DNA of 61,176 nt, taken from positions 1 to 61,176 of the forward strand of contig JBHLKA010000002.1 of the NCBI GenBank assembly GCA_048887145.1, written 5' to 3'. Made by a program: the position numbers and the translations under genes. Positions 7,841 to 43,068 of this stretch are shown here, piece after piece. The notes under the pieces are model-generated. The model saw only the letters and a program-made list of their open reading frames with translations. It was not told the origin of the DNA and ran no database searches. Source of the DNA: Candidatus Hodarchaeota archaeon (GTDB taxonomy: Archaea > Asgardarchaeota > Lokiarchaeia > Sigyniarchaeales > SOKP01). Position 1 is the first letter of the stretch; each line of letters opens with the position of its first letter.

Positions 7841-8359
7841 ATGTCCAAGCCAAAAGTTTGGAAAACAATAATCGCGGGAGATGGAGGGGTAGGAAAGACC
7901 TCATTTTTGAATCGATTAGTCTATGATTTTTTTAGTGATGGTAGTGAATTGACGCGAGGCGTTGATTTTTATTCAAAAATAACACAAATCAATGGTACAG
8001 AATTTAATTTTATTATGTGGGATTTTGCTGGTCAACACCAATTTAAAAAAATACTGGATGATTTCGTTGATGGTTCAATAGCAGCGTTTATCCTATTTGA
8101 TCTTACTCGAATTAATACTCTAGAAAGTGTTTATGAATGGATAAATAAGTTAAAAGCTTTTGGAAGAATTCCAATTATAATATTAGGAACAAAGTATGAT
8201 TTAATAGATCCTAATACCTGTTTTTCATTGGATGATTACATTTCAGATATTATTGCTTGTTATGAAAATGTAATTGAATATTTGAAGATCTCATCTAAGA
8301 CAGGATTCAATGTAGATCAAGCATTTGATTTGTTGATTAAGAAATTAAGTAATTTTTAA
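7841..8359 (+). CDS. Ras/Rab-like small GTPase
   Basis: 172 aa. G1 is GDGGVGKTS, G3 is WDFAGQ, G4 is GTKYD and G5 is SSKTG. Confidence 0.85.
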   Translation: MSKPKVWKTIIAGDGGVGKTSFLNRLVYDFFSDGSELTRGVDFYSKITQINGTEFNFIMWDFAGQHQFKKILDDFVDGSIAAFILFDLTRINTLESVYEWINKLKAFGRIPIIILGTKYDLIDPNTCFSLDDYISDIIACYENVIEYLKISSKTGFNVDQAFDLLIKKLSNF

Positions 8360-9765: not shown

Positions 9766-9838
9766 GCCAGAGTCGCTTAGACTGGTCGAGCGACAGCCTG
9801 CAGAGTTGTTAACGGGAGTTCAAATCTCCCCTCTGGCT
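9766..9838 (+). tRNA. tRNA-Cys(GCA)
   Basis: 73-nt cloverleaf. The acceptor is GCCAGAG/CTCTGGC, the anticodon arm is ACAGC-CTGCAGA-GTTGT, the T arm is GGGAG-TTCAAAT-CTCCC, and the discriminator is U. No CCA is encoded. Confidence 0.9.
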
Positions 9839-9929
9839 CTTAATTCTACTATTTAAAAATCTAACGTTATGAATTATTAGTATAATTTTTTTCAAAAAAT
9901 TTATCAAAACTTCTTAGTTATTTGAATAT

Positions 9930-10990: not shown

Positions 10991-12748
10991 ATGGCTGAAG
11001 AATATGATTATCTTTTTAAATCAATTGTCGTAGGAGATGGAGGCGTTGGTAAGACAGCATTAACACTCCGATTTTCTAAAGGGTTCTTTACTGAGGATTA
11101 TAAAATGACTATAGGTGTTGATTTCCATGTTAAAACTATTTCTATAGATACCTCAGAAGGAACAATTAAATGTAAATTACAACTCTGGGATACCGGTGGA
11201 CAAGAAAGATTTAGCTCAATCAGGCCTATGTATTATAGAGGTTCTTTAGGTGCTGTTTTAGTATTTGATCTTACAAATTACGCCAGCTTTGAACATCTTC
11301 CTCAATGGATTGAAGAAGTTCGTGCCAATATAAAATCCGAAATTCCCCTCTTACTTGTAGGTAATAAAAATGATTTAACCGATCAAAGAACTGTTTCTAT
11401 TGAAGAAATCAATAAATTCACAAGAGATTTCAATCTTTATTATATGGAAACCTCAGCAAAGACAGGTGATGGAGTAGGTGATTGTTTTTATATACTAGCT
11501 TGCCTCATGATTGGATCTGGAGTACCTGAACAGTTAATTAAAAATCAAACTGTCTTTAGTCCTGGACGAATTACTTTAGAGGTAAGTCCAGTATTATTGA
11601 AAGATGTATCTCCACCAGAACCAGAAATTGATTATGCTGCACCACCTGTTCCAGAGCCACCCTCTATAAAGTCACCTGAACCCTCACCTATATTTGAATC
11701 AGAACCAGAAATTGATTATGCTGCGCCACCTGTTCCAGAGCCACCCTCTATAAAATCACCTGAACCCTCACCTATATTTGAATCAGAACCAGAAATTGAC
11801 TATACTGCGCCACCTGTTCCGGAACGACCTTCTGAAAAATCAATTGAACCCGCACCCAAGTATGAATTAGAACCTGAGATAGAAACACCAGAGCTAAGTG
11901 AAATTGAATTTAAAACTCCCGAAGAAATCTTAGCGGAGAAATCTAATGAAACTCAACAGGTTTCTGCTTTTGATAAAATTCTTGAAATAACAGAACCGGA
12001 TTCATACAAACCAAAAGTTGTTCCTTTTTCGGATGCTACCCCTACACCTGCTCCCCGACCAGAAGGATTTCCTGCTATTGAAGGATCAACAGCTCAAAAG
12101 AAGGAAACAAATGTCATTCCACCTTTTCGAGTTACTAAGCAAGAAGAACCCCCAAAACCTAAACCAGCTTCGATGACATTTGAACAACCTCCCGAAAAAA
12201 TTCCAATCACCCCAATGGAAAGTCCAATTTTTCCCTCATCACTACAATCATCTCAAAAATCGAGTAGTCAATCTCTCGTCGATTACATGCCGCAAACAAT
12301 TTTATCAAAGAAAGAAAAGAAAAAACTAGCTAAAGAAAAGAAGAAAAAAGAAAAGGAGAAAAAATTACAAATGGAACGTGAGAAACAAGAAAAATTAATA
12401 GAAGGAATGAAGAAAACAAAGAAAGAGAAGAAAGAGAAAAAGCCAGAAGTATCAGAAACCGCTTCATTATTTCAGACATTAACTCGAAGGACTGAAGGAA
12501 TTACTGGAGAAACAAGTACCACTGTTCTTCCTTTTGTTGCAACAAAAAAAATTGAAGCAGAAGAAACATCGAAATTAAGAATTATTCCAAATGTTGATGA
12601 TATTGAACCAAGTGGTTTTATGCAAATTACTCCACCTGCAAGTAAACAAAAAAAAGAAACTACGCAGGAGTTATTAATCTGTAGGCAATGTGGCGCTACA
12701 TTGTCAGCTGATTATGCTTATTGTAACAAATGTGGTGCTAAACTCTAA
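10991..12748 (+). CDS. Rab-like small GTPase with a ~400-aa repeat/proline-rich/K-E-rich tail and a C-terminal zinc ribbon
   Basis: 585 aa. G1 is GDGGVGKTA, switch I is YKMTIGVDF, G3 is WDTGGQERF, followed by YYRGS..VLVFD, G4 GNKNDL and G5 ETSAKTG. The tail has EPEIDYAAPPVPEPPSIKSPEPSPIFES repeats and a KKEKKK coiled-coil-like stretch. It ends in CRQCG..(11)..CNKCG (12680-12745). Confidence 0.9.
   Translation: MAEEYDYLFKSIVVGDGGVGKTALTLRFSKGFFTEDYKMTIGVDFHVKTISIDTSEGTIKCKLQLWDTGGQERFSSIRPMYYRGSLGAVLVFDLTNYASFEHLPQWIEEVRANIKSEIPLLLVGNKNDLTDQRTVSIEEINKFTRDFNLYYMETSAKTGDGVGDCFYILACLMIGSGVPEQLIKNQTVFSPGRITLEVSPVLLKDVSPPEPEIDYAAPPVPEPPSIKSPEPSPIFESEPEIDYAAPPVPEPPSIKSPEPSPIFESEPEIDYTAPPVPERPSEKSIEPAPKYELEPEIETPELSEIEFKTPEEILAEKSNETQQVSAFDKILEITEPDSYKPKVVPFSDATPTPAPRPEGFPAIEGSTAQKKETNVIPPFRVTKQEEPPKPKPASMTFEQPPEKIPITPMESPIFPSSLQSSQKSSSQSLVDYMPQTILSKKEKKKLAKEKKKKEKEKKLQMEREKQEKLIEGMKKTKKEKKEKKPEVSETASLFQTLTRRTEGITGETSTTVLPFVATKKIEAEETSKLRIIPNVDDIEPSGFMQITPPASKQKKETTQELLICRQCGATLSADYAYCNKCGAKL
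11618..11869 (+). repeat. 84-bp in-frame tandem repeat (two near-identical copies plus one diverged copy) inside the GTPase tail
   Basis: Copies start at 11618, 11702 and 11786 (gaaccagaaattga(t/c)tat(g/a)ctgc...). Copies 1 and 2 differ at only a few positions, and copy 3 diverges after about 40 bp. Confidence 0.85.
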
Positions 12749-12759
12749 TTGAGTTAAAC

Positions 12760-13578
12760 TTAGATTGTTTTTCCACAAATTGGACAAGTACTCCACATTT
12801 TTTTAATTTTAGATTTACAATGGGGACATATTTTTAATTCAGGGTCAATTTGAGTTTGTGGTTTTCCAAATATAGTAGTACTATCCTCAATCTTATATTC
12901 GATTGGCTTATTAGGAGGTTTAACCGTTGAAACTTGGTTATCTGAAGTTTTTATAATTTGACGAGATTTTTGAGGAATCTTTGTACTCTTTACAAACATC
13001 TGTTTAGTTAATTTTCCAGTAGAATCAACTTTCTTTTCTTTAGATATAGAATCTTCTTGAATGTTTTGCGGAACTTGGCGAATTTGGGCTTTTTTCGTCT
13101 CGATTTCGCTTTTAATTGGCTTCTTCTCTGTTTGCTTTAGAGAGATGCCCACTTTATAGAGATAATACTTCCCGTCATTATTTTCAATTACGCTTTCACC
13201 ATTTACTAACATAACTTCAATATAATAAATAATTAAAGAACCAATAGGTACCTCGACTATCTCAGCAATAAAATAATCCATTTTATTTTCCATTTTCATT
13301 TGGAACCATGTTTTCCCATGATCAGCACTAAAGATAAGTTTTACAGCATCTAATTTATTATCAAAATCCTCTTCGGTGATTTTCACAACAATCTTTATTG
13401 TTTTCTTTTTTGGTTCTCCGGATTCTTCAAATTCTTCAATTTCTGCCTCATCCCATGCTACACCACATTTTGGACAGTTGGTAAACCAATTTGGATATTC
13501 AAAGTTACATTTAGAACAAGTTTTCGTAAAATAACGAGTTGTTTTTATTCCAATCGTTTTCTTTTTATCCTTTGCCAT
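12760..13578 (-). CDS. Double zinc-ribbon protein with a central beta-rich domain
   Basis: 272 aa. The N-terminal ribbon is CSKCNFEYPNWFTNCPKCG and the C-terminal ribbon is CPHCKSKIKKMWSTCPICG. The central part, VKLIFSADHGKTWFQMKME..YYIEVMLVNGESV, looks like a beta-sandwich. Confidence 0.6.
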   Translation of the reverse strand: MAKDKKKTIGIKTTRYFTKTCSKCNFEYPNWFTNCPKCGVAWDEAEIEEFEESGEPKKKTIKIVVKITEEDFDNKLDAVKLIFSADHGKTWFQMKMENKMDYFIAEIVEVPIGSLIIYYIEVMLVNGESVIENNDGKYYLYKVGISLKQTEKKPIKSEIETKKAQIRQVPQNIQEDSISKEKKVDSTGKLTKQMFVKSTKIPQKSRQIIKTSDNQVSTVKPPNKPIEYKIEDSTTIFGKPQTQIDPELKICPHCKSKIKKMWSTCPICGKTI

Positions 13579-13721: not shown

Positions 13722-14348
13722 GTGAAACAAAAAATAAATTCTGAAGAAGTAAAAGCAATTTTAGCTGCACTTAATGATTTAATTGAAATAAAAGTTTTAA
13801 TACGCGGAGTTGCTCCAAATTATAATTTAGATGATGATTTTAATAATGAATTAATACAATTATTAAAAGCACTTCGATTAAAACTTCAGCCAATCTTTTC
13901 TAAATATTTAGATATTGGATATTTTAAAGAGAACAGCATAAATCAAAAAGAAATTGATATGCAATATATAATTGAATTAATTAAAAAGAAAAAACATATT
14001 ATCGTTTCCGCAAGCAATTCAAAAAAAAAATTAAAAAATTTTGGAATTGATCCCCGAATTATAATTGTTACTGGTGGCCCTTTATTCGTTGAAAACTACA
14101 AGAAAGTTAATCCTACTTTGACTAATAATGCACTATTAGGTATTAAAAAGAAATGTGAAAGCCTAATAAATCAAATTAAAAAATTAGCTAAGAAAGCAAA
14201 AGAATTAATTTTTATTTATGAGAAAGATAATTTAACTGACCAAATAATATTAAAAGAATTAGATCTCTTAGAAAACACAACTGACATAAAAATAAAAAGT
14301 TATAATATAAAATCTTGGAAAAATTTCGAATTTCAATCAAAACCTTAA
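13722..14348 (+). CDS. Hypothetical protein
   Basis: 208-aa ORF with a GTG start. No family was recognised. Its 3' end overlaps the convergent mfnA stop by 4 nt. Confidence 0.45.
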   Translation: MKQKINSEEVKAILAALNDLIEIKVLIRGVAPNYNLDDDFNNELIQLLKALRLKLQPIFSKYLDIGYFKENSINQKEIDMQYIIELIKKKKHIIVSASNSKKKLKNFGIDPRIIIVTGGPLFVENYKKVNPTLTNNALLGIKKKCESLINQIKKLAKKAKELIFIYEKDNLTDQIILKELDLLENTTDIKIKSYNIKSWKNFEFQSKP

Positions 14349-35567: not shown

Positions 35568-38500
35568 TTAGAAGAAATCAGATAACTTCTGTTGTTTTAT
35601 TCTGGGATTATTTGTTAAACTCTCTACATATTCCTCAATTAATTCCATTCGTTGAATAGTATACTCATCTAATTTAAATTCTTTACATAACCTAATAGCA
35701 CGAGGAATATATTTTTCAATTCCACCTCTATTAACTGTTAATATAACTCTATTTCCACATATAGGACAATTACCTGCATTAGAGAGAGGGGGTCTTCTGA
35801 ATTTCTCATTACATTTCACACACCTAAATTCTTGTATAGAAAACTTCCTTAAATTGCCTAAAATATCTGGATTGAAGTGACTAGTTAAAATCTTTTCCGC
35901 AACCTTTTTAGCATTTACGGATTTAATGATTTCAGCTAGATGTAATTGAGCATCTACTTTTTTATCCATAGATTCATATGTTTTATATGCTGTAACTTTA
36001 GGTCCATCGTTAATATTTTTAGTAGGTATGTTGAATCCAATGTTTTCAAATCGTTCAGGAGTACCTAATCGGCTTTCTACAAGGCTCATCAATTTTTCAA
36101 TTTTTGATGGAGAGATATATTTCTCGCTTTCTTCATAAAACTCTAAAGGGTATTTATATAGCGTATCTACATTATGGACCTCAACATCTATTTCATTTGG
36201 ATCTAAAGATGTACCAATAACCAATGTAGCATCCATCCTTCCACCAATTTTACTTGGTAAATAATGCCTAGAAAAATTCAAAAGAGGATCTAAAAGGAGC
36301 ATTATCCCATCTTCATCTCCATCACAGTTCCTTCTTTTTGCAGCATGCCAATAAGGATGAGCATAAATTGATCTAGCAGGAGTGAATCCAATGATACGAC
36401 CAATAATTCCCGCACTTGTATGAGGGGCTAATCCCACTAATAAATGTCCAACCAAATCCGCTTTTTCAGAAATATTATAAAATCTATCCATTTCATAAAA
36501 ATACTCTAATTCATCATCTAAAAACCGAGAAACTTTAATTAAATAATCGGCACAATCGTTTGAGATGACAATATCTTGTACTTTTAATTCAATAATTTGT
36601 TTTTTATCATTTAATGGGTCACCCTTAAAATCATGTGTATATCCCAAATCTCTTAATTTTTCAATAGAGATTCCAATTTCTTCTGCTTTAAAATGAGTAA
36701 GAGGAATATCGGTAGCATCGTACCTTATTTCAGCAGTTTTGTATACTAAAACATCATTTTTTGCTCGTAAAATGCCTTTTTCTATAGGTTCTGGTATCTT
36801 GAATGTATTTGTTAAACCAAAAATACCTTTTAATTTTTTTGGAAAAGTTATTTGAAGAGAATTTAAAACTGAATCGATATGAGATTTAATATTAAATATA
36901 GCTTCACTTGAAGATTTCAGAGTTTCTCCACATTTAGGGCATTTTTCTTTTTCATTAGGATCTGATGCAGGAAATAAATTTTTACATTTTATGCAAATTG
37001 ATTTTAACTCAGTATGAGCTTTACACTTCGGACATAAATTAAATATGCTTACTGTACCACATTTAGGGCACATTCTCCTGCATACATCTATCTGTACTTT
37101 TTGTAATTCTCTTGCCTTTTCTACAGATCTAGAATTACCAACTTTATCACTTAGAGGGAATAATGAATGGACTCCCTTCATACTCTTTCTTTCGGATTTT
37201 TCAGGACGCCCCATTCGCGTACCCATAAAATAAGGTGCTTTATTCTTCACTCTAATAGAAGATACCTTGAAAAAATAACTGAATACATCATCTTCCTTAC
37301 TATATTTAACTAATTTTTTATCTTTAAGATTAAATAACGCCTTATAGACACTATTCATGGCTTTTTTAAAAAAAATTTTATTATCTTTAACTTTATGTAA
37401 AATAAATGCTTTTTCAAGAATCTCTTTAATTTTGTTAGTATTTTCTAAGATAATTTTCTCATTTTGTACCGAAAAATTAGATATAAATGCCTTTCTTAAA
37501 AGATCTAATTCTTCTACTGAGATATTGCCCCAAAAATCAGTATATGAGGGGTGTAGAGGTATATTGTAATTTAAAGATATTTCTATTGCTTCATCAGCTG
37601 TAGGTTTACATTCAAAGGGATTAGTTATATAATCACGTATTTTTTGATCTATATTTTGTAGGTTCCCAATGGCGTTTTCTAATTCTAAAGCCCACCACTC
37701 TTCTACATAACCAGAAGCTACTAAGATATGATTATTTTCTGCGAATTCTCCAAAACCAAAAAGTATATCACCTAGAAATAAAACATTTTCTATTTGAGGA
37801 AAATAATGTTTTGCCATTTTATAACTATTTACTTTAATTACATTCCCATTTTTCAATTTAACAATAGGAGGTTCAATGGAATTAACAGGACAAATACTCG
37901 TACTTTTACCAGGCCTTTCAATTCTTAACTGTGTACCTATTGAGATAAAATCATCCAAAATCCCCATAGTCGCAGGATGGATTCCCGCTGCCGCTAAACC
38001 AGTATTTCTAGATCTTCCATACCTTATTCTATGACCGCCTATTTCAGATGGGTGACTGAAAACTGGTCTTCCTGCTATAATATCAGCAACAAATTTTGAA
38101 TTAGGGAGAATTTTCTTCTTTTTTTCTTCTTTTACTTCTTCTACTCCTACCTTACTTACAACAGTGTTTTTATCTTCTCCTTTATTAGCTACTTTTTTTA
38201 AATCAGCTAACCAATTCCAACTTTCTAATTTCATTGTTTTTGCGATTTTTAAAAGTTTTGGCGCTTTAAGAAGAATTCCATCATTTAATACTAAGCAGGC
38301 ACCCCCGCGGATTTTATTTGTTTCAATTCTTGGTAAATTTCGAAACGCTGAGACTTCTTCTTCTTCTGTTGAATCCCCATTTATTTCTACAGGTAAGTGT
38401 TTTACTGCGAATCTTATCTCGTCATTGGAGGATGGATATTGTAAATGAACTCTTCTATCATATAATTTTACTTCTTCGACATATCTTCCAATTTCAGCTT

Positions 38501-39032
38501 CTGTGGCTTCATATTTAGGTATTTTTGTTTTTTCTCTTACATAATCAGCTATTAGAACACATAATGCCTGTGTCGTTCCTCCAGCGGCTCTTATCGGTCC
38601 TGCAAAATATAAGGATAAATATTTATTTCCTTGCTTGTCATTTCTTATGAGAATCTTTGAAATTCCTTCTAAGGGAGCACTGACAACACCCATAGTTTTT
38701 ATTGCTAAACCTACTCTAATAGATCTTTCCACTCTTTCTTCTAATGATTGAATATCTCCAATTTTTTGATCCAAAATATCTGAAACTACTTGAAATACTA
38801 TTTCATCATCACTTTTTCCCTTAATCTTAAGTTCTCTTATGATATCTGCGACTCCTTCTGGTCCAACAAGTTTTTCTACCCTTCCAGCTAAATCTCTTGC
38901 TTGTGGAGACTCTACATACAATTCTGGGTCTAATCCTTTTTTACGGGCTCTTTCTGCGAGATCATAACAAATATCTACTTGTTTTTGAATTCTTAAAAAA
39001 TAATCTTCCATTTCCTTGCTCATATCGACCAT
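35568..39032 (-). CDS. polD2: DNA polymerase II (PolD) large subunit DP2
   Basis: The ORF runs to 39083. The likely start is the MVDM/MSKEMEDYF region, by comparison with known DP2 N-termini (MEEYF...ARKKG.DP). Several CxxC zinc modules are present (CPKCG, CPKCK, CIKC, CPKCG, CVKC..CPICG). The length is consistent with an intein-free protein. Confidence 0.93.
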   Translation of the reverse strand: MVDMSKEMEDYFLRIQKQVDICYDLAERARKKGLDPELYVESPQARDLAGRVEKLVGPEGVADIIRELKIKGKSDDEIVFQVVSDILDQKIGDIQSLEERVERSIRVGLAIKTMGVVSAPLEGISKILIRNDKQGNKYLSLYFAGPIRAAGGTTQALCVLIADYVREKTKIPKYEATEAEIGRYVEEVKLYDRRVHLQYPSSNDEIRFAVKHLPVEINGDSTEEEEVSAFRNLPRIETNKIRGGACLVLNDGILLKAPKLLKIAKTMKLESWNWLADLKKVANKGEDKNTVVSKVGVEEVKEEKKKKILPNSKFVADIIAGRPVFSHPSEIGGHRIRYGRSRNTGLAAAGIHPATMGILDDFISIGTQLRIERPGKSTSICPVNSIEPPIVKLKNGNVIKVNSYKMAKHYFPQIENVLFLGDILFGFGEFAENNHILVASGYVEEWWALELENAIGNLQNIDQKIRDYITNPFECKPTADEAIEISLNYNIPLHPSYTDFWGNISVEELDLLRKAFISNFSVQNEKIILENTNKIKEILEKAFILHKVKDNKIFFKKAMNSVYKALFNLKDKKLVKYSKEDDVFSYFFKVSSIRVKNKAPYFMGTRMGRPEKSERKSMKGVHSLFPLSDKVGNSRSVEKARELQKVQIDVCRRMCPKCGTVSIFNLCPKCKAHTELKSICIKCKNLFPASDPNEKEKCPKCGETLKSSSEAIFNIKSHIDSVLNSLQITFPKKLKGIFGLTNTFKIPEPIEKGILRAKNDVLVYKTAEIRYDATDIPLTHFKAEEIGISIEKLRDLGYTHDFKGDPLNDKKQIIELKVQDIVISNDCADYLIKVSRFLDDELEYFYEMDRFYNISEKADLVGHLLVGLAPHTSAGIIGRIIGFTPARSIYAHPYWHAAKRRNCDGDEDGIMLLLDPLLNFSRHYLPSKIGGRMDATLVIGTSLDPNEIDVEVHNVDTLYKYPLEFYEESEKYISPSKIEKLMSLVESRLGTPERFENIGFNIPTKNINDGPKVTAYKTYESMDKKVDAQLHLAEIIKSVNAKKVAEKILTSHFNPDILGNLRKFSIQEFRCVKCNEKFRRPPLSNAGNCPICGNRVILTVNRGGIEKYIPRAIRLCKEFKLDEYTIQRMELIEEYVESLTNNPRIKQQKLSDFF

Positions 39033-39293
39033 TGATAGCCAACTTAAAATGTGTATTTTTAGGGTTTCTAAGAAATTTAACAATCTTAAACCAATAAATT
39101 GATTTATTAATAGGCTAATTGAACCATAATTTTTTAATAAATAGGGATAAAGAATTTTTAGTTGTTTTAATAATATTGATATTTAAAACACTCCCTAATT
39201 ATAAAAAGTAAAAATTTGTTCTTTGCTTAATAATAAATCATTAAATTTTGTCTCAACATTAATACAATAATTAATATTCTGGTAGAGAAAAAA

Positions 39294-41054
39294 TTGGATA
39301 AGGATTTGGCAGAGCAAAAGAGGATAATAATTAATGCACTCGTTAATTCGGGTATAAATATTACTCCTCAAAGTATGAAATCAATATTAGATCTAAAAAA
39401 TCTACAAAAAGGTTTGAGTAATCTAATAAAAGAACTAAGCTTTATTCCAAATTTTAATAGTCATTTAACAGAAAGCATTTTAAAAAAAATTTCAAATGAA
39501 GAATTACAAAAAGCACTGAAAAGGACAATCGAAAAGTCAAAGGATTTACAAAATGAAAAAGAATCTACTGTGGATGATATTAGATTGAAACAGCCTAAAA
39601 GTTCTAACCTTGAGATAAAAACTCAAGAATCAAAAGTACAAATGGAGGAATTACCCATCGAATTGCCTACTAAATTAGAAGATATAAACTTTACTTCTAC
39701 TGAAAGCTTTTTAATAAAAGAAAAATCAAAGATTCAACAATTTGGAACAACAAAATCTAAAATAAAAGTCAGTCCTATCGCTAAAGACTATGAATTTGAT
39801 TATACAATTTTAAAAGATCCAACAGGAAAATTATATACAAATGGAGAGTATTCTGATTTTTATCAGTTGACACTAGATAAGTTCAAAAAACTACACATAT
39901 TAATGAGAAAAAGACCCGAGGTACTTTCTGCAGTTTCCATAAAAAATATTCTTAGATTATCTAGAGACGTGGAAATATCCACTATTGGATTAGTTAAAAA
40001 TATTCGTCAAACCAAAAATGGGAATTATTTCTTAGAATTGGAAGATTTAACAGGTAATATTAATGTACTTGTTAGAAAAGATTCTGAAGATAAAGAATCT
40101 ATAAAAATCGTCAAAAGAATTGTTTTTGATCAGATGCTATATGTAAAAGGAATGTATAACTCAGGTGAAAAGTTTAAAAATGGAATAATTTTTGCAGATT
40201 ACATCTCAAAAATAGATATACCCACAGACTATCAACCTAATCGATCTACATTACCAATTTCTCTTGCTTTAATTTCAGATACTCATATTGGTAGCAAAGA
40301 ATTTGAAGAACCTTTATTTAAAAGATTTTTAAATTTTTTAAATGGTAAAGTTGGTAATAAGAAATTAAGAGAAATTGCTGGAAGAATAAAATATATTATA
40401 ATAAATGGTGATCTAGTTGATGGGATTGGAGTCTATCCGAATCAACAAGATGATTTAATAATTTCTGATATTTACATGCAATTTAAAAAAGCTTCAGAGT
40501 TACTGACTGAAATTCCAGATTACATTAAAGTTTTTTATGTATCTGGTAATCATGAACCAGTTAGGAATGCTCTACCTAGACCCGCAGTCCCAAAAAAATA
40601 TAGCAAGGCTTTAATTGATTTAAATGTAACATGTTTGGGAAATCCTTCTTTAATCAAAACTAATAATGTGAGCACACTCATTTATCATGGAGAAAGTATT
40701 CATGATATGAATTTGTTAATTCATGATTTAGATATAAATAAACCTATTGATGCTATGAAAGAATTTCTTATTTGTAGACATTTAGCGCCAATTTTTGGTG
40801 AAAAAACACAAATTGCGCCAGCAGAAAAAGATTTTCTTGTGATAGATCGAATTCCTGATATTTTTCATACCGGTCATATTCATATAAATGGAAGTGGGAA
40901 ATATAATAATGTTACCTTGATTAATTCTGGATGTTTTCAGTCCCAAACAGATTTTATGAAAAGTTTTGGAATAGATCCAACCCCCGGAATTGTTCCGATT
41001 ATTGAATTAGATACATTAAAGGCATTTGAATTAGATTTAAAAAGTAATAATTAA
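39294..41054 (+). CDS. polD1: DNA polymerase II (PolD) small subunit DP1 (OB fold plus calcineurin-like phosphoesterase)
   Basis: 586 aa, TTG start. Phosphoesterase motifs are ISDTHIGS, INGDLVDG, SGNHE and GHIH. The gene is divergent from DP2. Confidence 0.9.
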   Translation: MDKDLAEQKRIIINALVNSGINITPQSMKSILDLKNLQKGLSNLIKELSFIPNFNSHLTESILKKISNEELQKALKRTIEKSKDLQNEKESTVDDIRLKQPKSSNLEIKTQESKVQMEELPIELPTKLEDINFTSTESFLIKEKSKIQQFGTTKSKIKVSPIAKDYEFDYTILKDPTGKLYTNGEYSDFYQLTLDKFKKLHILMRKRPEVLSAVSIKNILRLSRDVEISTIGLVKNIRQTKNGNYFLELEDLTGNINVLVRKDSEDKESIKIVKRIVFDQMLYVKGMYNSGEKFKNGIIFADYISKIDIPTDYQPNRSTLPISLALISDTHIGSKEFEEPLFKRFLNFLNGKVGNKKLREIAGRIKYIIINGDLVDGIGVYPNQQDDLIISDIYMQFKKASELLTEIPDYIKVFYVSGNHEPVRNALPRPAVPKKYSKALIDLNVTCLGNPSLIKTNNVSTLIYHGESIHDMNLLIHDLDINKPIDAMKEFLICRHLAPIFGEKTQIAPAEKDFLVIDRIPDIFHTGHIHINGSGKYNNVTLINSGCFQSQTDFMKSFGIDPTPGIVPIIELDTLKAFELDLKSNN

Positions 41055-41065
41055 TAAATTTAAAT

Positions 41066-41749
41066 ATGTCTTTTTCAATTCCTCGACAAAAAATATCAGA
41101 AATGGTATTATATATATGGAAAATCATCAACTTTCCCGAGATTCCATATGAAAATCTTTTATTTAAAATTTCCTTTGATTTATTTCTTTACCCCCCGGAT
41201 GAAGCAAAGATCTTCATTGAAAATGCAATTAAAAATAAATTTCTTATTCAGGATGATGATAAAAATCTTAAATTATCCGAGAATTTGAATTCTAAACTTC
41301 AAGCTTGGCAAAGAAATCGTAAGAATGAAATTTTACGTAAAATGGAATTTTATCAAAAGGAAAGTGAACTTAGAAATACTCTCGAACTAAAAAATAAAGA
41401 TGAATTTAATATTCTTTTAAAGAGTTTCACAGACAAGACAACTCTTAATCGCGCGGTAAGTGTTTCAGAATCTGCGTTTAATATAAAAAAAGTCGATTTA
41501 AATGAAGGATTAATACTAGGCAACGTCGTAGGATCGAAAGAAGAACCTTATCTGTTTAAAATAGATTTAAATGAAAAAGAGTTAAAACACAACTGCCATG
41601 ATTTTCAAACAAGAAGAGCCAAAGAAAAAAAATTCTGTAAACACTTAATTAGATTATTCCTGATATTAAGAGAAAAAGATCAAAAAATAGCAGTTTCTTT
41701 TCTTAGGAAAATTAGTGATAATATTGAAAAATGGGAATTTTCAGATTAA
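41066..41749 (+). CDS. Hypothetical protein with a degenerate SWIM-like C/H motif, wedged between DP1 and orc1
   Basis: 227 aa, starting 11 bp after the DP1 stop. The C-terminus, HNCHDFQTRRAKEKKFCKH, resembles a SWIM zinc finger but lacks the canonical CxC. Confidence 0.5.
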   Translation: MSFSIPRQKISEMVLYIWKIINFPEIPYENLLFKISFDLFLYPPDEAKIFIENAIKNKFLIQDDDKNLKLSENLNSKLQAWQRNRKNEILRKMEFYQKESELRNTLELKNKDEFNILLKSFTDKTTLNRAVSVSESAFNIKKVDLNEGLILGNVVGSKEEPYLFKIDLNEKELKHNCHDFQTRRAKEKKFCKHLIRLFLILREKDQKIAVSFLRKISDNIEKWEFSD

Positions 41750-43068
41750 ATTAGCTTTCTAAAAACATTATTCTTTATTTTAACCTTATCAGTCAATAAA
41801 ACTATTGGTTTATGGTTTAAAATGCCGCTAATTTGAAATTTTTCTATTTGAGATAAAGCACGCTCAACTAAATCTTTTTCAATATCAAAATTAACTAACT
41901 TTGTCCTTCCATAGTGTCCCATGGATTTAGTACTAGCAGTTATTATTCCTGCTAGAGATAATTCATTTATGTAATCACTTATCCTTCTTTGGGTTAATTT
42001 TTTTATACCAGGCACTTTCTCAGCTAATTCTGAATGCGTTTCATATATATCTCCAGAGGTGATAATATGACCTTTTCCATACTTCTTAAGAAGATGAATT
42101 GCGGTTAATGTCAATTGTGCTTGAAGCGGCATCGATAATATATATTCAATTATGTGATTTTTTTCGAGGTCTTTTTGAGCCTTAATTATATCTGATTCTG
42201 AAATTATCTTGTGCTGTTTTCTTTCAGCGAGCTCTCCTGCTTTTCTTAATAATTGAAGTGCTTTTCTAGCATCCCCGTGTTCTTTTGCAGCTAAACCAGC
42301 ACAGAGCTTTATAACACCCTGATCTAACACCTTTTCATTAAAAGCAATTTTTGAGCGTTGGATTAGTATGTCAGCTAATTCATTAGCATTATAAGGATGA
42401 AATACTATTGGTTCTTGCCCTGACAATCCAGAAGTGACTCTTGAATCCAAATATTCCATGAACCTTAATTTATTTGATATGCCTATTATACATGCTCTGC
42501 ATGAATCTAAGTTCTCATTTAATCTTGTTAAATCATATAAAATTTCATTTCCTTCTGTTTTTTCAATAAGAATATCAATCTCATCTAAAACAAGAAAACA
42601 AACGCTATTTTTGATGCGTATGTCTAATAACCCTAATAACTTTTTAAAAATTATATCTTTTGGCAATCCAGTAGGTGGTATTTTTTCTTTTCCTTCTATC
42701 GTATTATAAATGTGAGCTAGAATACGATAAGGAGTAGAAACGATGTTACAATTTATATAAATCCACCATGGAAGATTTTTTTCACAATGCTGAGCTAATT
42801 TTTGGCTGATATACCTAATGGTGGCAGTCTTACCTGTACCAGTCATACCATAGCATAAGAAACTAGGAGGGACATCTCCTTCTAGCGCACATGCTGTTAT
42901 TCCTGCAATTTTCTTTATTTCTTTATCCCGATGTGGTAATTCTTCAGGAATATACGAAGGTTCTAAAGCTTCACGCATTTTAAATATTTTTGGGCCTTTC
43001 AAATATTTCTTATAAAATCTGTCAATATTAAAAGAGTGATTATCATTATTCTTTGGATTAGTCAACAA
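41746..43068 (-). CDS. cdc6: Orc1/Cdc6 replication initiator (AAA+ plus winged helix)
   Basis: 440 aa. Contains the EELPHRDKEI motif, Walker A GMTGTGKT and Walker B LVLDEID, plus a C-terminal winged-helix region (ISDYINELSLAGII). Confidence 0.92.
   Translation of the reverse strand: MLTNPKNNDNHSFNIDRFYKKYLKGPKIFKMREALEPSYIPEELPHRDKEIKKIAGITACALEGDVPPSFLCYGMTGTGKTATIRYISQKLAQHCEKNLPWWIYINCNIVSTPYRILAHIYNTIEGKEKIPPTGLPKDIIFKKLLGLLDIRIKNSVCFLVLDEIDILIEKTEGNEILYDLTRLNENLDSCRACIIGISNKLRFMEYLDSRVTSGLSGQEPIVFHPYNANELADILIQRSKIAFNEKVLDQGVIKLCAGLAAKEHGDARKALQLLRKAGELAERKQHKIISESDIIKAQKDLEKNHIIEYILSMPLQAQLTLTAIHLLKKYGKGHIITSGDIYETHSELAEKVPGIKKLTQRRISDYINELSLAGIITASTKSMGHYGRTKLVNFDIEKDLVERALSQIEKFQISGILNHKPIVLLTDKVKIKNNVFRKLI

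Follow-up and report, generated by a model that had tools for sequence, protein, structure and literature searches.

A Rab-like GTPase of Asgard archaea with a long disordered tail of conserved short motifs and a C-terminal zinc ribbon

Asgard small GTPases are central to arguments on the origin of eukaryotic membrane trafficking and, because they have no lipid anchors, how archaeal switches reach their targets is an open problem. A gene on contig JBHLKA010000002.1 (assembly GCA_048887145.1), of which positions 1 to 61,176 were analysed (the window), raises this question in a particular form. The complete gene (10991–12748, forward strand; 585 amino acids plus stop) encodes a Rab-like G domain followed by a disordered tail and a zinc ribbon. 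What is such a tail, and what could it do for a GTPase with no prenylation motif? A first, sequence-only reading of the DNA had described the domain layout and a set of tandem repeats. Two conclusions go beyond that reading: the host is an Asgard archaeon, and the tail as a whole is conserved across a family and carries about ten short motifs, the repeats being only one variable part of it.

The first 178 residues (10991–11524, forward strand) form a Ras-superfamily G domain of Rab-like type. The Pfam Ras profile matches residues 10–170 (E = 7e-53), the 585 aa protein matches NCBIfam small_GTP (2.6e-25), and the motifs GDGGVGKT (P-loop), YKMTIGVDF (switch I, RabF1), WDTGGQERF (switch II), YYRGS, GNKNDL (NKxD) and ETSAK can be read in the sequence. 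All five G motifs are intact (G1, GDGGVGKT; G2, T40; G3, DTGGQ with the catalytic Gln71; G4, NKND; G5, SAK), and with the Ras-profile match they place the protein in the Ras superfamily. Judged by these motifs, the domain is catalytically complete. The best 60 matches of a PDB sequence search with the G domain were 59 eukaryotic Rabs (Rab30, Rab8A, Ypt1/Rab1, Rab2, Rab11, Rab35, Rab43, Sec4; 4e-44 to 1.5e-38) and the Thorarchaeota Rab (PDB 7EZB; E = 4e-41), and the top 50 Foldseek matches were likewise Rabs and Thor-Rab. The Rab-type G domain recognised in the sequence-only reading is thereby borne out. RabF1 (IGVDF) is identical to what we take to be the consensus of Pereira-Leal and Seabra (2000), while RabF2 to RabF5 differ from it at 1–2 positions each (KLQLW/KLQIW, RFSSIR/RFRSIT, YYRGS/YYRGA and LVFDLT/LVYDIT, protein before consensus), giving 21 of 27 identical positions over RabF1–F5. 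RabF motifs are known in Loki Rab-likes from published work.

The C-terminus reads CNKCGAKL, with the last cysteine at position −5 and within a CxxC pair of the ribbon, and the same is true of every one of the 74 complete orthologues at related loci. None of the prenylatable C-termini looked for (CC, CXC, CCXX, CAAX) occurs in the 585 aa protein or in any of those 74 orthologues, in agreement with the earlier claim that a prenylation box is missing. A CAAX-like reading of the terminal CGAKL was considered and rejected, because the cysteine stands at −5 and some orthologues have one extra residue. In a published phylogeny, no Asgard sequence is specifically sister to eukaryotic Rabs (bioRxiv 10.1101/2024.02.28.582541). 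For these two reasons, the missing prenylation motif and the published phylogeny, the protein is filed as Rab-like/RasL and not as a Rab; on its sequence characters it is a Rab-like member of the Asgard 'RasL' small GTPases.

The sequence-only reading had itself named two artefacts that could lie behind such an architecture: mis-assembled repeats, or a chimera in which a small GTPase gene and a downstream gene were joined by a sequencing error. The sequence comes from a metagenome-assembled genome (MAG), and short-read assemblers can miscount near-identical 84 bp repeats. Against this, homologues with the same layout of G domain and ribbon, for which a search had been proposed, were found in >110 further protein clusters that align over 100% of the query at 53–89% identity, and in 74 related loci. 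In each of these loci, as in the window, a single uninterrupted open reading frame (ORF) of 528–660 aa runs from MxEEYD(Y/F)LFK to the ribbon, and these sequences come from independent projects. The only further ORF lacking the ribbon (L067) is truncated by the end of its own contig. Tail-only 'proteins' in the representative library are fragments that start within the G domain (for example P0241), and no stand-alone tail proteins were found besides contig-end fragments. An identical protein (P0001) is encoded on a separate 18 kb NCBI contig, where it is named 'MAG: GTP-binding protein [Candidatus Hermodarchaeota archaeon]'. The first two repeat units can be told apart by two synonymous bases, and close relatives from independent assemblies have the same 28 aa repeat register, with 2 or 3 units. 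A fusion or assembly artefact is effectively refuted by the independent orthologous ORFs, the identical protein and the distinguishing bases, and we give it a negligible probability. The gene is real, is widely conserved in Loki-type Asgard archaea and is not peculiar to one genome. One homologue from the Joint Genome Institute (JGI), P0119 (898 aa), has a 340-residue N-terminal extension without an initial methionine, which looks like gene-calling read-through from an upstream ORF.

All named homologue clusters were Asgard (Promethearchaeota, Lokiarchaeota, Hermod- and Thorarchaeota) except for one MAG labelled 'Zixibacteria' (P0111), a label that is probably a binning error. A scan of one genome per prokaryotic species gave 131 species genomes with a relative; the best 80 of the 131 were all Asgard MAGs, most of them labelled Promethearchaeota, Promethearchaeia or Loki and a few Hermod-, Thor-, Hod-, Odin- or Heimdallarchaeota. 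NCBI now applies the name Promethearchaeota to the whole Asgard phylum. The synteny shared by these loci suggests a single lineage of carriers. Ten loci with Hermod-, Thor-, Hod-, Odin- or Heimdallarchaeota labels (L008, L019, L041, L046–L048, L060, L061, L066 and L068) carry the gene at 50–63% identity within the Loki-type syntenic block; either several Asgard classes share the family, with a synteny of unusual stability, or the labels given by some submitters cannot be trusted.

Family alignments were made with 27, 116 and 75 members, the last being orthologues from genomes, and conservation was measured on these 75 orthologues as the mean majority-residue frequency of a segment. The G domain is near-invariant by this measure (0.92) while the tail diverges. 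The 407-residue tail (residues 179–585) is rich in proline (15%), glutamate (14%), lysine (12%) and serine (9%), and its first part, residues 179–437, is strongly acidic (net charge −24). Along it, about ten short conserved islands alternate with unconserved linkers. Mean conservation of the linkers is 0.16–0.54, compared with 0.68–0.74 for the islands EFKTP, YKPK-PEGF, SLxDYMP and SLFQTL, 0.74 for the lysine/glutamate (K/E) helix segment, 0.78 for LRIIPN and 0.83 for the ribbon.

The first of the conserved elements is the repeated [DE][YF]xAPPVPEP motif, which is considered below. The next island, PEIxxPE...EIEFKTP(D/E)EIL (residues 295–316; 11873–11938, forward strand, as are all further tail elements), includes a short predicted helix at 310–316, and the segment 294–318 has a mean of 0.70. 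It is followed by YKPKxxPF(S/T)xxxPxPAPxPEGF (residues 339–360; 12005–12070), in which Y339, P341, P345, F346, P357 and F360 are invariant in 116 sequences; this island is kept in the most divergent members (P0263, P0272, P0279 and P0293). The island (T/P)PFRVxKxEEPxKPKPASMTF (residues 377–397; 12119–12181) belongs to the closer part of the family only, with an occupancy of 0.57 over the 75 orthologues. SxSLxDYMPQ (residues 426–437; 12266–12301) stands directly before the basic K/E helix; L429, D431 and P434 are invariant and the segment 424–438 has a mean of 0.68. Beyond the helix lie SLFQTLTx (residues 492–499; 12464–12487; L493, F494, Q495 and L497 invariant), with a short helix predicted at 493–496, a further xPF motif, and SKLRIIPNVxDIE (residues 527–539; 12569–12607), where L529, R530, I531, I532 and P533 are invariant and the segment 526–540 has a mean of 0.78.

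In five divergent members (P0263, P0272, P0275, P0279 and P0293) tail identity falls to 35–45%, with the G domain and ribbon kept. Most of the core motifs (YxPKxxPF, SLxDY(M/L)P, LFxTL, xPF and IIPN) persist in them, although some are gone from P0263 and P0293. When the tail alone was compared by phmmer with 1.84 billion representative proteins, there were 56 matches, of which the strong ones were family members or their fragments and the weak ones matched the generic ribbon only; the idea that the tail is a module common to other protein families was rejected on this result. The restriction of the tail to one family, together with its conserved islands, argues that it arose within this lineage and that purifying selection acts on it at discrete sites. 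Short linear interaction motifs strung along a disordered chain would be expected to give an island pattern of this kind.

Structure prediction with AlphaFold2 (AF2) gave a tail that is disordered except for the helices at 310–316, 493–496 and 440–480 and the ribbon. The sequence-only reading had suggested a length-variable spacer, and this description fits a chain that is mostly disordered and ends in an invariant ribbon. The full-length model was poor, with a mean predicted local distance difference test (pLDDT) score of 52.7, a probable consequence of too little variation in the G-domain part of the alignment. Confidence was very low (pLDDT ~34) over residues 1–45 (10991–11125), which hold the N-terminal strands and P-loop of the canonical G domain, probably because the 116-sequence alignment is almost invariant there; family-only alignments call for caution in structure prediction, as this part of the GTPase illustrates.

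The protein ends in a predicted C4 zinc ribbon, LLICRQCGATLSADYAYCNKCGAKL (residues 561–585; 12671–12745, forward strand), with cysteines at 564, 567, 578 and 581. The spacing is CRQCG-x9-CNKCG (C564-x2-C567-x10-C578-x2-C581), correcting the x11 given in the sequence-only reading, whose description was otherwise accurate. Pfam Zn_Ribbon_1 (PF13240) matches residues 564–585 with E = 1.7e-5 and 24.9 bits, marginally under the cut-off of 25, and it matches all 27 members of the smallest alignment at E ≤ 1e-3. The ribbon ends all 74 complete orthologous ORFs from related loci. Besides the four cysteines, G568, L571, S572, D574, Y575, N579, K580 and G582 are invariant in the 116-sequence alignment, and AF2 places two short strands in the ribbon (pLDDT ~77). 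Judged by its sequence, it is a predicted metal-binding module that is invariant at the C-terminus.

Between the acidic region and the ribbon lies the lysine/glutamate-rich segment (residues 438–484; 12302–12442, forward strand), in agreement with the earlier description of a P/S/E-rich region followed by a KKEKKK-type charged helix, for which both composition and AF2 now speak. Lysine makes up 49% of it, and with 24 K+R against 10 D+E its net charge is +14. AF2 predicts a single long helix at 440–480, with pLDDT of 82–90 across the block. ER/K single alpha-helices are long isolated helices in which E alternates with K/R at a roughly balanced charge; here the prediction is of one helix, the composition is lysine-biased, and the relative P0248 has a balanced EKERKAREEKEEKE expansion. 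The segment is a variable helix rather than a fixed motif, being expanded into ER/K repeats in P0248, placed beside the ribbon in P0279 and absent in P0293. That the core motifs persist while the basic helix moves, expands or vanishes fits a position-independent electrostatic or spacer role.

A lysine-rich helix ahead of a C4 ribbon could also be a nucleic-acid or ribosome-binding module, so that the GTPase would act on a ribonucleoprotein or on chromatin and not in trafficking. The charge of residues 438–484 is in keeping with this, as is the position of the gene within a region of core housekeeping genes (RpoB, PolD, Cdc6, RtcB and PAN), and nucleic-acid binding is a frequent annotation of generic ribbons in this Pfam clan, with similar JGI names in the family of the neighbouring gene. 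However, these annotations are generic, the basic helix is dispensable in P0293, the acidic charge of residues 179–437 would repel nucleic acid, and the G domain is of the Rab/Ras type and not of a translation-factor or ribosome-assembly GTPase class. We regard a nucleic-acid role as very improbable.

Starting from the observed architecture, conservation, family restriction, disorder and repeat dynamics, we propose that the protein is a GTP/GDP switch on a long flexible leash, whose short motifs dock partners and whose ribbon and basic helix localise its far end. We put the probability of this mechanism at about 0.5. The G domain would act at the end of the leash, which by our estimate would have a contour length of ~100 nm if fully extended. 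The short conserved motifs in the tail would dock partner proteins, and the ribbon, with electrostatic help from the basic helix in members that have one, would fix the C-terminal end to a membrane surface, a filament or another protein. In this way the tail would do the work that falls to the prenylated hypervariable region in eukaryotic Rabs. We infer these roles of the motifs as binding sites and of the ribbon and basic helix as localisers, and the ribbon may, by analogy with the K-Ras4B/Rit polybasic regions and with the haloarchaeal protein CdpC, be an anchor that replaces lipidation, as the sequence-only reading had also suggested.

K-Ras4B and Rit/Rin have polybasic C-terminal targeting regions. 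Like these, the tailed GTPase has a lysine-rich cluster near the C-terminus of a Ras-superfamily protein, and by analogy the cluster could bind anionic lipids electrostatically. The differences are that the cluster is a helix of ~45 residues located ~80 residues from the end, that it is followed by a ribbon and not by a lipid, and that some members lack it or have it elsewhere. In terms of mechanism, the closest precedent is CdpC, which anchors FtsZ1 to the membrane in Haloferax volcanii and in which terminal zinc ribbons are joined by a long disordered linker; one end binds the membrane via an adjacent amphipathic helix, the C-terminal ribbon binds FtsZ1, and both zinc sites are essential (bioRxiv 10.64898/2026.07.16.738847). 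CdpC evolves fast with its domain layout kept, and distant multi-ribbon relatives have been reported in Lokiarchaeia (same source). This precedent indicates that a terminal ribbon with a disordered linker can mediate membrane or partner binding in archaea. CdpC differs from the tailed GTPase in having no GTPase domain and a ribbon at both ends, where the GTPase has a C-terminal ribbon only.

Several points count against the proposed mechanism. That the tail motifs bind partners is presumed from their sequence, and no membrane-binding element, such as an amphipathic or transmembrane helix, was found in the protein. The basic helix is missing from P0293, so it is not essential to any universal anchoring mechanism. 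The conserved residues of the ribbon largely match the generic PF13240 consensus and so do not prove that there is a surface for one particular partner. Contacts between tail and G domain are beyond what the poor full-length AF2 model can reveal. Finally, synteny with a zinc-ribbon neighbour, described below, may reflect genome conservation alone.

A more specific form of the proposal is that a Rab-like switch is positioned without lipid by a pre-eukaryotic mechanism, in which ribbon and electrostatic helix tether the G domain to a membrane or filament and the leash motifs assemble effectors. This is possible but doubtful. If it is true, such positioning would foreshadow or parallel in function the Rab hypervariable region with its prenyl anchor, and GTP state might be coupled to cytoskeletal or membrane remodelling in Asgard protrusions.

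The conserved ends of the protein might alternatively serve each other, with the tail motifs or the ribbon folding onto the switch regions of the same or a second molecule, to give autoinhibition or head-to-tail oligomerisation. In eukaryotes, Rabs are bound by the zinc modules of Rabphilin, EEA1 and Mss4. Conservation within the family is extreme both on the G-domain surface and in the ribbon, and the opposite charges of the basic helix and the acidic spacer could compact the chain. There are, however, more conserved islands than a single intramolecular contact needs, and nothing in the low-confidence AF2 output points to docking. Autoregulation of this kind therefore seems unlikely to us.

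The tandem repeats lie near the start of the leash as three in-frame 84 bp (28 aa) units, residues 210–293 (11618–11701, 11702–11785 and 11786–11869, forward strand). Tandem Repeats Finder reported a period of 84, 3.1 copies, 89% matches, no indels and a score of 392 at 11616–11874. Two synonymous changes in 84 bases separate units 1 and 2, and unit 3 differs from either at 15–17 bases, matching the earlier count of two near-identical copies and one diverged copy. Each unit consists of EPEIDY-x-APPVPE-x-P and a variable P/S/E spacer; a better definition of the unit is its conserved core, [DE]-[YF]-x-A-P-P-V-P-E-P. In the profile of 75 orthologues, APPVPE is 80–95% conserved and the spacers within the units are unconserved.

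Copy number varies, as the sequence-only reading had predicted from the near-identity of the units. Relatives at 84–89% identity carry 2 or 3 units, P0006 and P0010 being short of one 28 aa unit; P0094 has four nearly identical 29 aa units; and in more distant members the APPVPE motif occurs 0–4 times, with none in L073, L080 and L084. Units 1 and 2 of the window share 98% of their DNA sequence. In the two nearest genomes, which match the window at 94% in G-domain DNA, no unit exceeds 90% identity to either of them. In one of these two genomes (L006), units 1 and 3 are 99% identical. The array has therefore been repeatedly homogenised or re-duplicated within lineages. Repeat homogenisation is lineage-specific, and recent expansion or homogenisation has taken place.

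Proline-rich repeats of this kind next to a GTPase domain suggest another role, that of a cytoskeletal linker or regulator. The APPVPEP array and the other motifs would recruit profilin or gelsolin-like proteins, or the ribbon would bind a filament (FtsZ, tubulin-like or Lokiactin), so that the GTPase, like a formin or WASP, would link the assembly of filaments at a particular site to nucleotide state. The repeats are multivalent, and the C-terminal ribbon of CdpC offers an analogy, as it binds FtsZ1 and is joined by a long disordered linker to a membrane-binding end. Furthermore, the Asgard actin cytoskeleton is regulated, and profilins of Heimdall and Thor bind polyproline weakly (PMC8410842). 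Loki profilin-1 and -2, however, did not bind the VASP polyproline peptide in the same study (PMC8410842). This result, together with the complete lack of APPVPEP in the three members named above, weakens the earlier suggestion that the PPVPEPP units are profilin ligands. Its lack in these members also shows that the motif is not universal. Pfam found no FH2, WH2 or other actin-binding domain, and the likeness to CdpC is one of architecture only, with no homology seen and none searched for. A cytoskeletal role is improbable on this balance. APPVPE was also considered as a ligand motif common to neighbouring proteins, and this was rejected because no other ORF of ≥80 aa carries it, whether within the window or across ~1 Mb of related loci.

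How does the proposed partner-docking leash with a localising end compare with what has been published for other small GTPases? Archaeal Rab-likes are said to have shorter C-termini, with no extended region past the G domain and no polybasic region or membrane-association signal (PMC4915359). Those of Thor and MK-D1 'lack the C-terminal extension', no MK-D1 small GTPase has terminal cysteines, and BLAST found no homologues of Rab escort protein (REP) or Rab geranylgeranyl transferase (PMC10933270). The tailed GTPase family is an exception to each published generalisation on short, non-polybasic archaeal Rab-like tails. It resembles the Asgard Rab-likes (Thorarchaeota Rab 7EZB; Lokiarchaeum Rab-likes, Surkont and Pereira-Leal 2016) in G-domain fold and motifs, RabF-like motifs, archaeal origin and the absence of prenylation cysteines, but differs from them in its 407-residue tail, its polybasic helix and the four terminal cysteines held in a ribbon. 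Eukaryotic Rabs (Rab1/Ypt1, Rab8, Rab30) are the best G-domain matches in sequence and structure and also have a flexible C-terminal region after the G domain. Unlike them, the tailed protein is without CC, CXC or CAAX, and its tail is about ten times the length of the Rab hypervariable region and unrelated to it in sequence.

Comparable too are two Rab-clade proteins of MK-D1 (Prometheoarchaeum syntrophicum), labelled 'GXzn' (WP_147661765.1) and 'Gzn' (WP_147662073.1) in Supplementary Figs 4–5 of Tran et al. 2024 (PMC10933270). A G-domain alignment and the cartoon labels were published, and the tail and zinc module were not discussed (PMC10933270). Both have the same domain order as the tailed family, a Rab-clade G domain, an unknown region and a zinc module, and the last G-domain helix of GXzn (GVGxxFxILxxLM) resembles GVGDCFYILACLM of the tailed family. 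The G domain of GXzn is only ~60% similar to that of the tailed family, as estimated by eye from a noisy alignment recovered by optical character recognition, whereas within the family this domain is near-invariant, also in divergent members. GXzn may be a relative of the tailed family. Beyond the labels 'GXzn' and 'Gzn', a literature search found no paper describing the tail motifs, repeats or basic helix; the architecture was catalogued in passing for MK-D1 in a supplementary figure in 2024 and never analysed. If the MK-D1 protein is a relative, pull-down and localisation would be feasible in a cultured strain. With its strongly conserved G domain, basic helix, terminal ribbon and motifs, this widespread family is a testable candidate for lipid-independent targeting and effector assembly, and the motif set supplies precise peptides and mutants to test.

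The window has a G+C content of ~29% and carries archaeal core genes for RNA polymerase subunit B (RpoB), PolD DP2 and DP1, Cdc6/Orc1, RtcB and PAN. Upstream of the GTPase gene lies PanB; downstream, 11 bp off, is a convergent gene (12760–13578, reverse strand) for a 272 aa protein. By Pfam and AF2, this protein has an N-terminal zinc ribbon, a beta-sandwich (residues 58–142), a disordered linker (152–245) and a C-terminal zinc ribbon. By architecture it is more CdpC-like than the GTPase is. The two genes are arranged tail-to-tail in all 78 related loci with room for the neighbour, with gaps of 6–228 bp. The neighbour family comprises ~360 clusters, and the named ones are from Asgard MAGs or a marine-sediment metagenome (LCGC14); its JGI names include 'predicted nucleic-acid-binding Zn-ribbon protein' and 'RPABC4/Spt4'.

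A Foldseek search with the model of this neighbour found generic sandwiches only, similar to carbohydrate-binding modules or immunoglobulin domains, and none at E ≤ 1e-3. A role as a GTPase-activating protein or guanine nucleotide exchange factor (roadblock, longin or TBC) is unsupported, given this generic beta-sandwich core and the lack of a match at that threshold. The pair is part of a larger syntenic block of genes for an aminotransferase, PanB, the GTPase, the double-ribbon protein, an MfnA-like decarboxylase, MazG and NrdD. An operon argument for GTPase and neighbour was rejected, the genes being convergent inside this block, and for the same reasons adjacency is weak evidence for a functional link. 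A functional partnership between the two proteins is suggestive only.

Small GTPase genes cluster in this region. A stand-alone 172 aa Ras-family GTPase is encoded at 7841–8359 (forward strand; Pfam Ras 5e-30), ~2.6 kb upstream of the tailed GTPase gene, and a small GTPase gene is present at a comparable upstream position in L001 and L003. In the same two relatives a Rag/Gtr1-like GTPase gene (314 aa) lies between the aminotransferase and PanB genes (L001, 5675–6619; L003, 5880–6824). The corresponding slot in the window holds only a tRNA-Cys(GCA) (9766–9839, forward strand), indicating that the Rag-like gene was lost or moved. Between the double-ribbon and MfnA-like decarboxylase genes is a DUF2100 gene ('uncharacterized protein conserved in archaea'; 13722–14348, forward strand); of 80 related loci, only 10 have a homologue within reach, which suggests that this gene was inserted locally into the otherwise conserved block.

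Rfam detected three tRNAs only over the whole window, and a scan for bacterial-type promoters and terminators was uninformative for an archaeon. The genes for PolD DP2 (35568–39083, reverse strand), a DP1-like protein (39294–41054, forward strand) and Cdc6/Orc1 (41746–43068, reverse strand) are grouped at 35568–43068. Cumulative GC skew falls steadily to ~40 kb and is irregular beyond, and the PolD/Cdc6 region may represent the neighbourhood of a replication origin.

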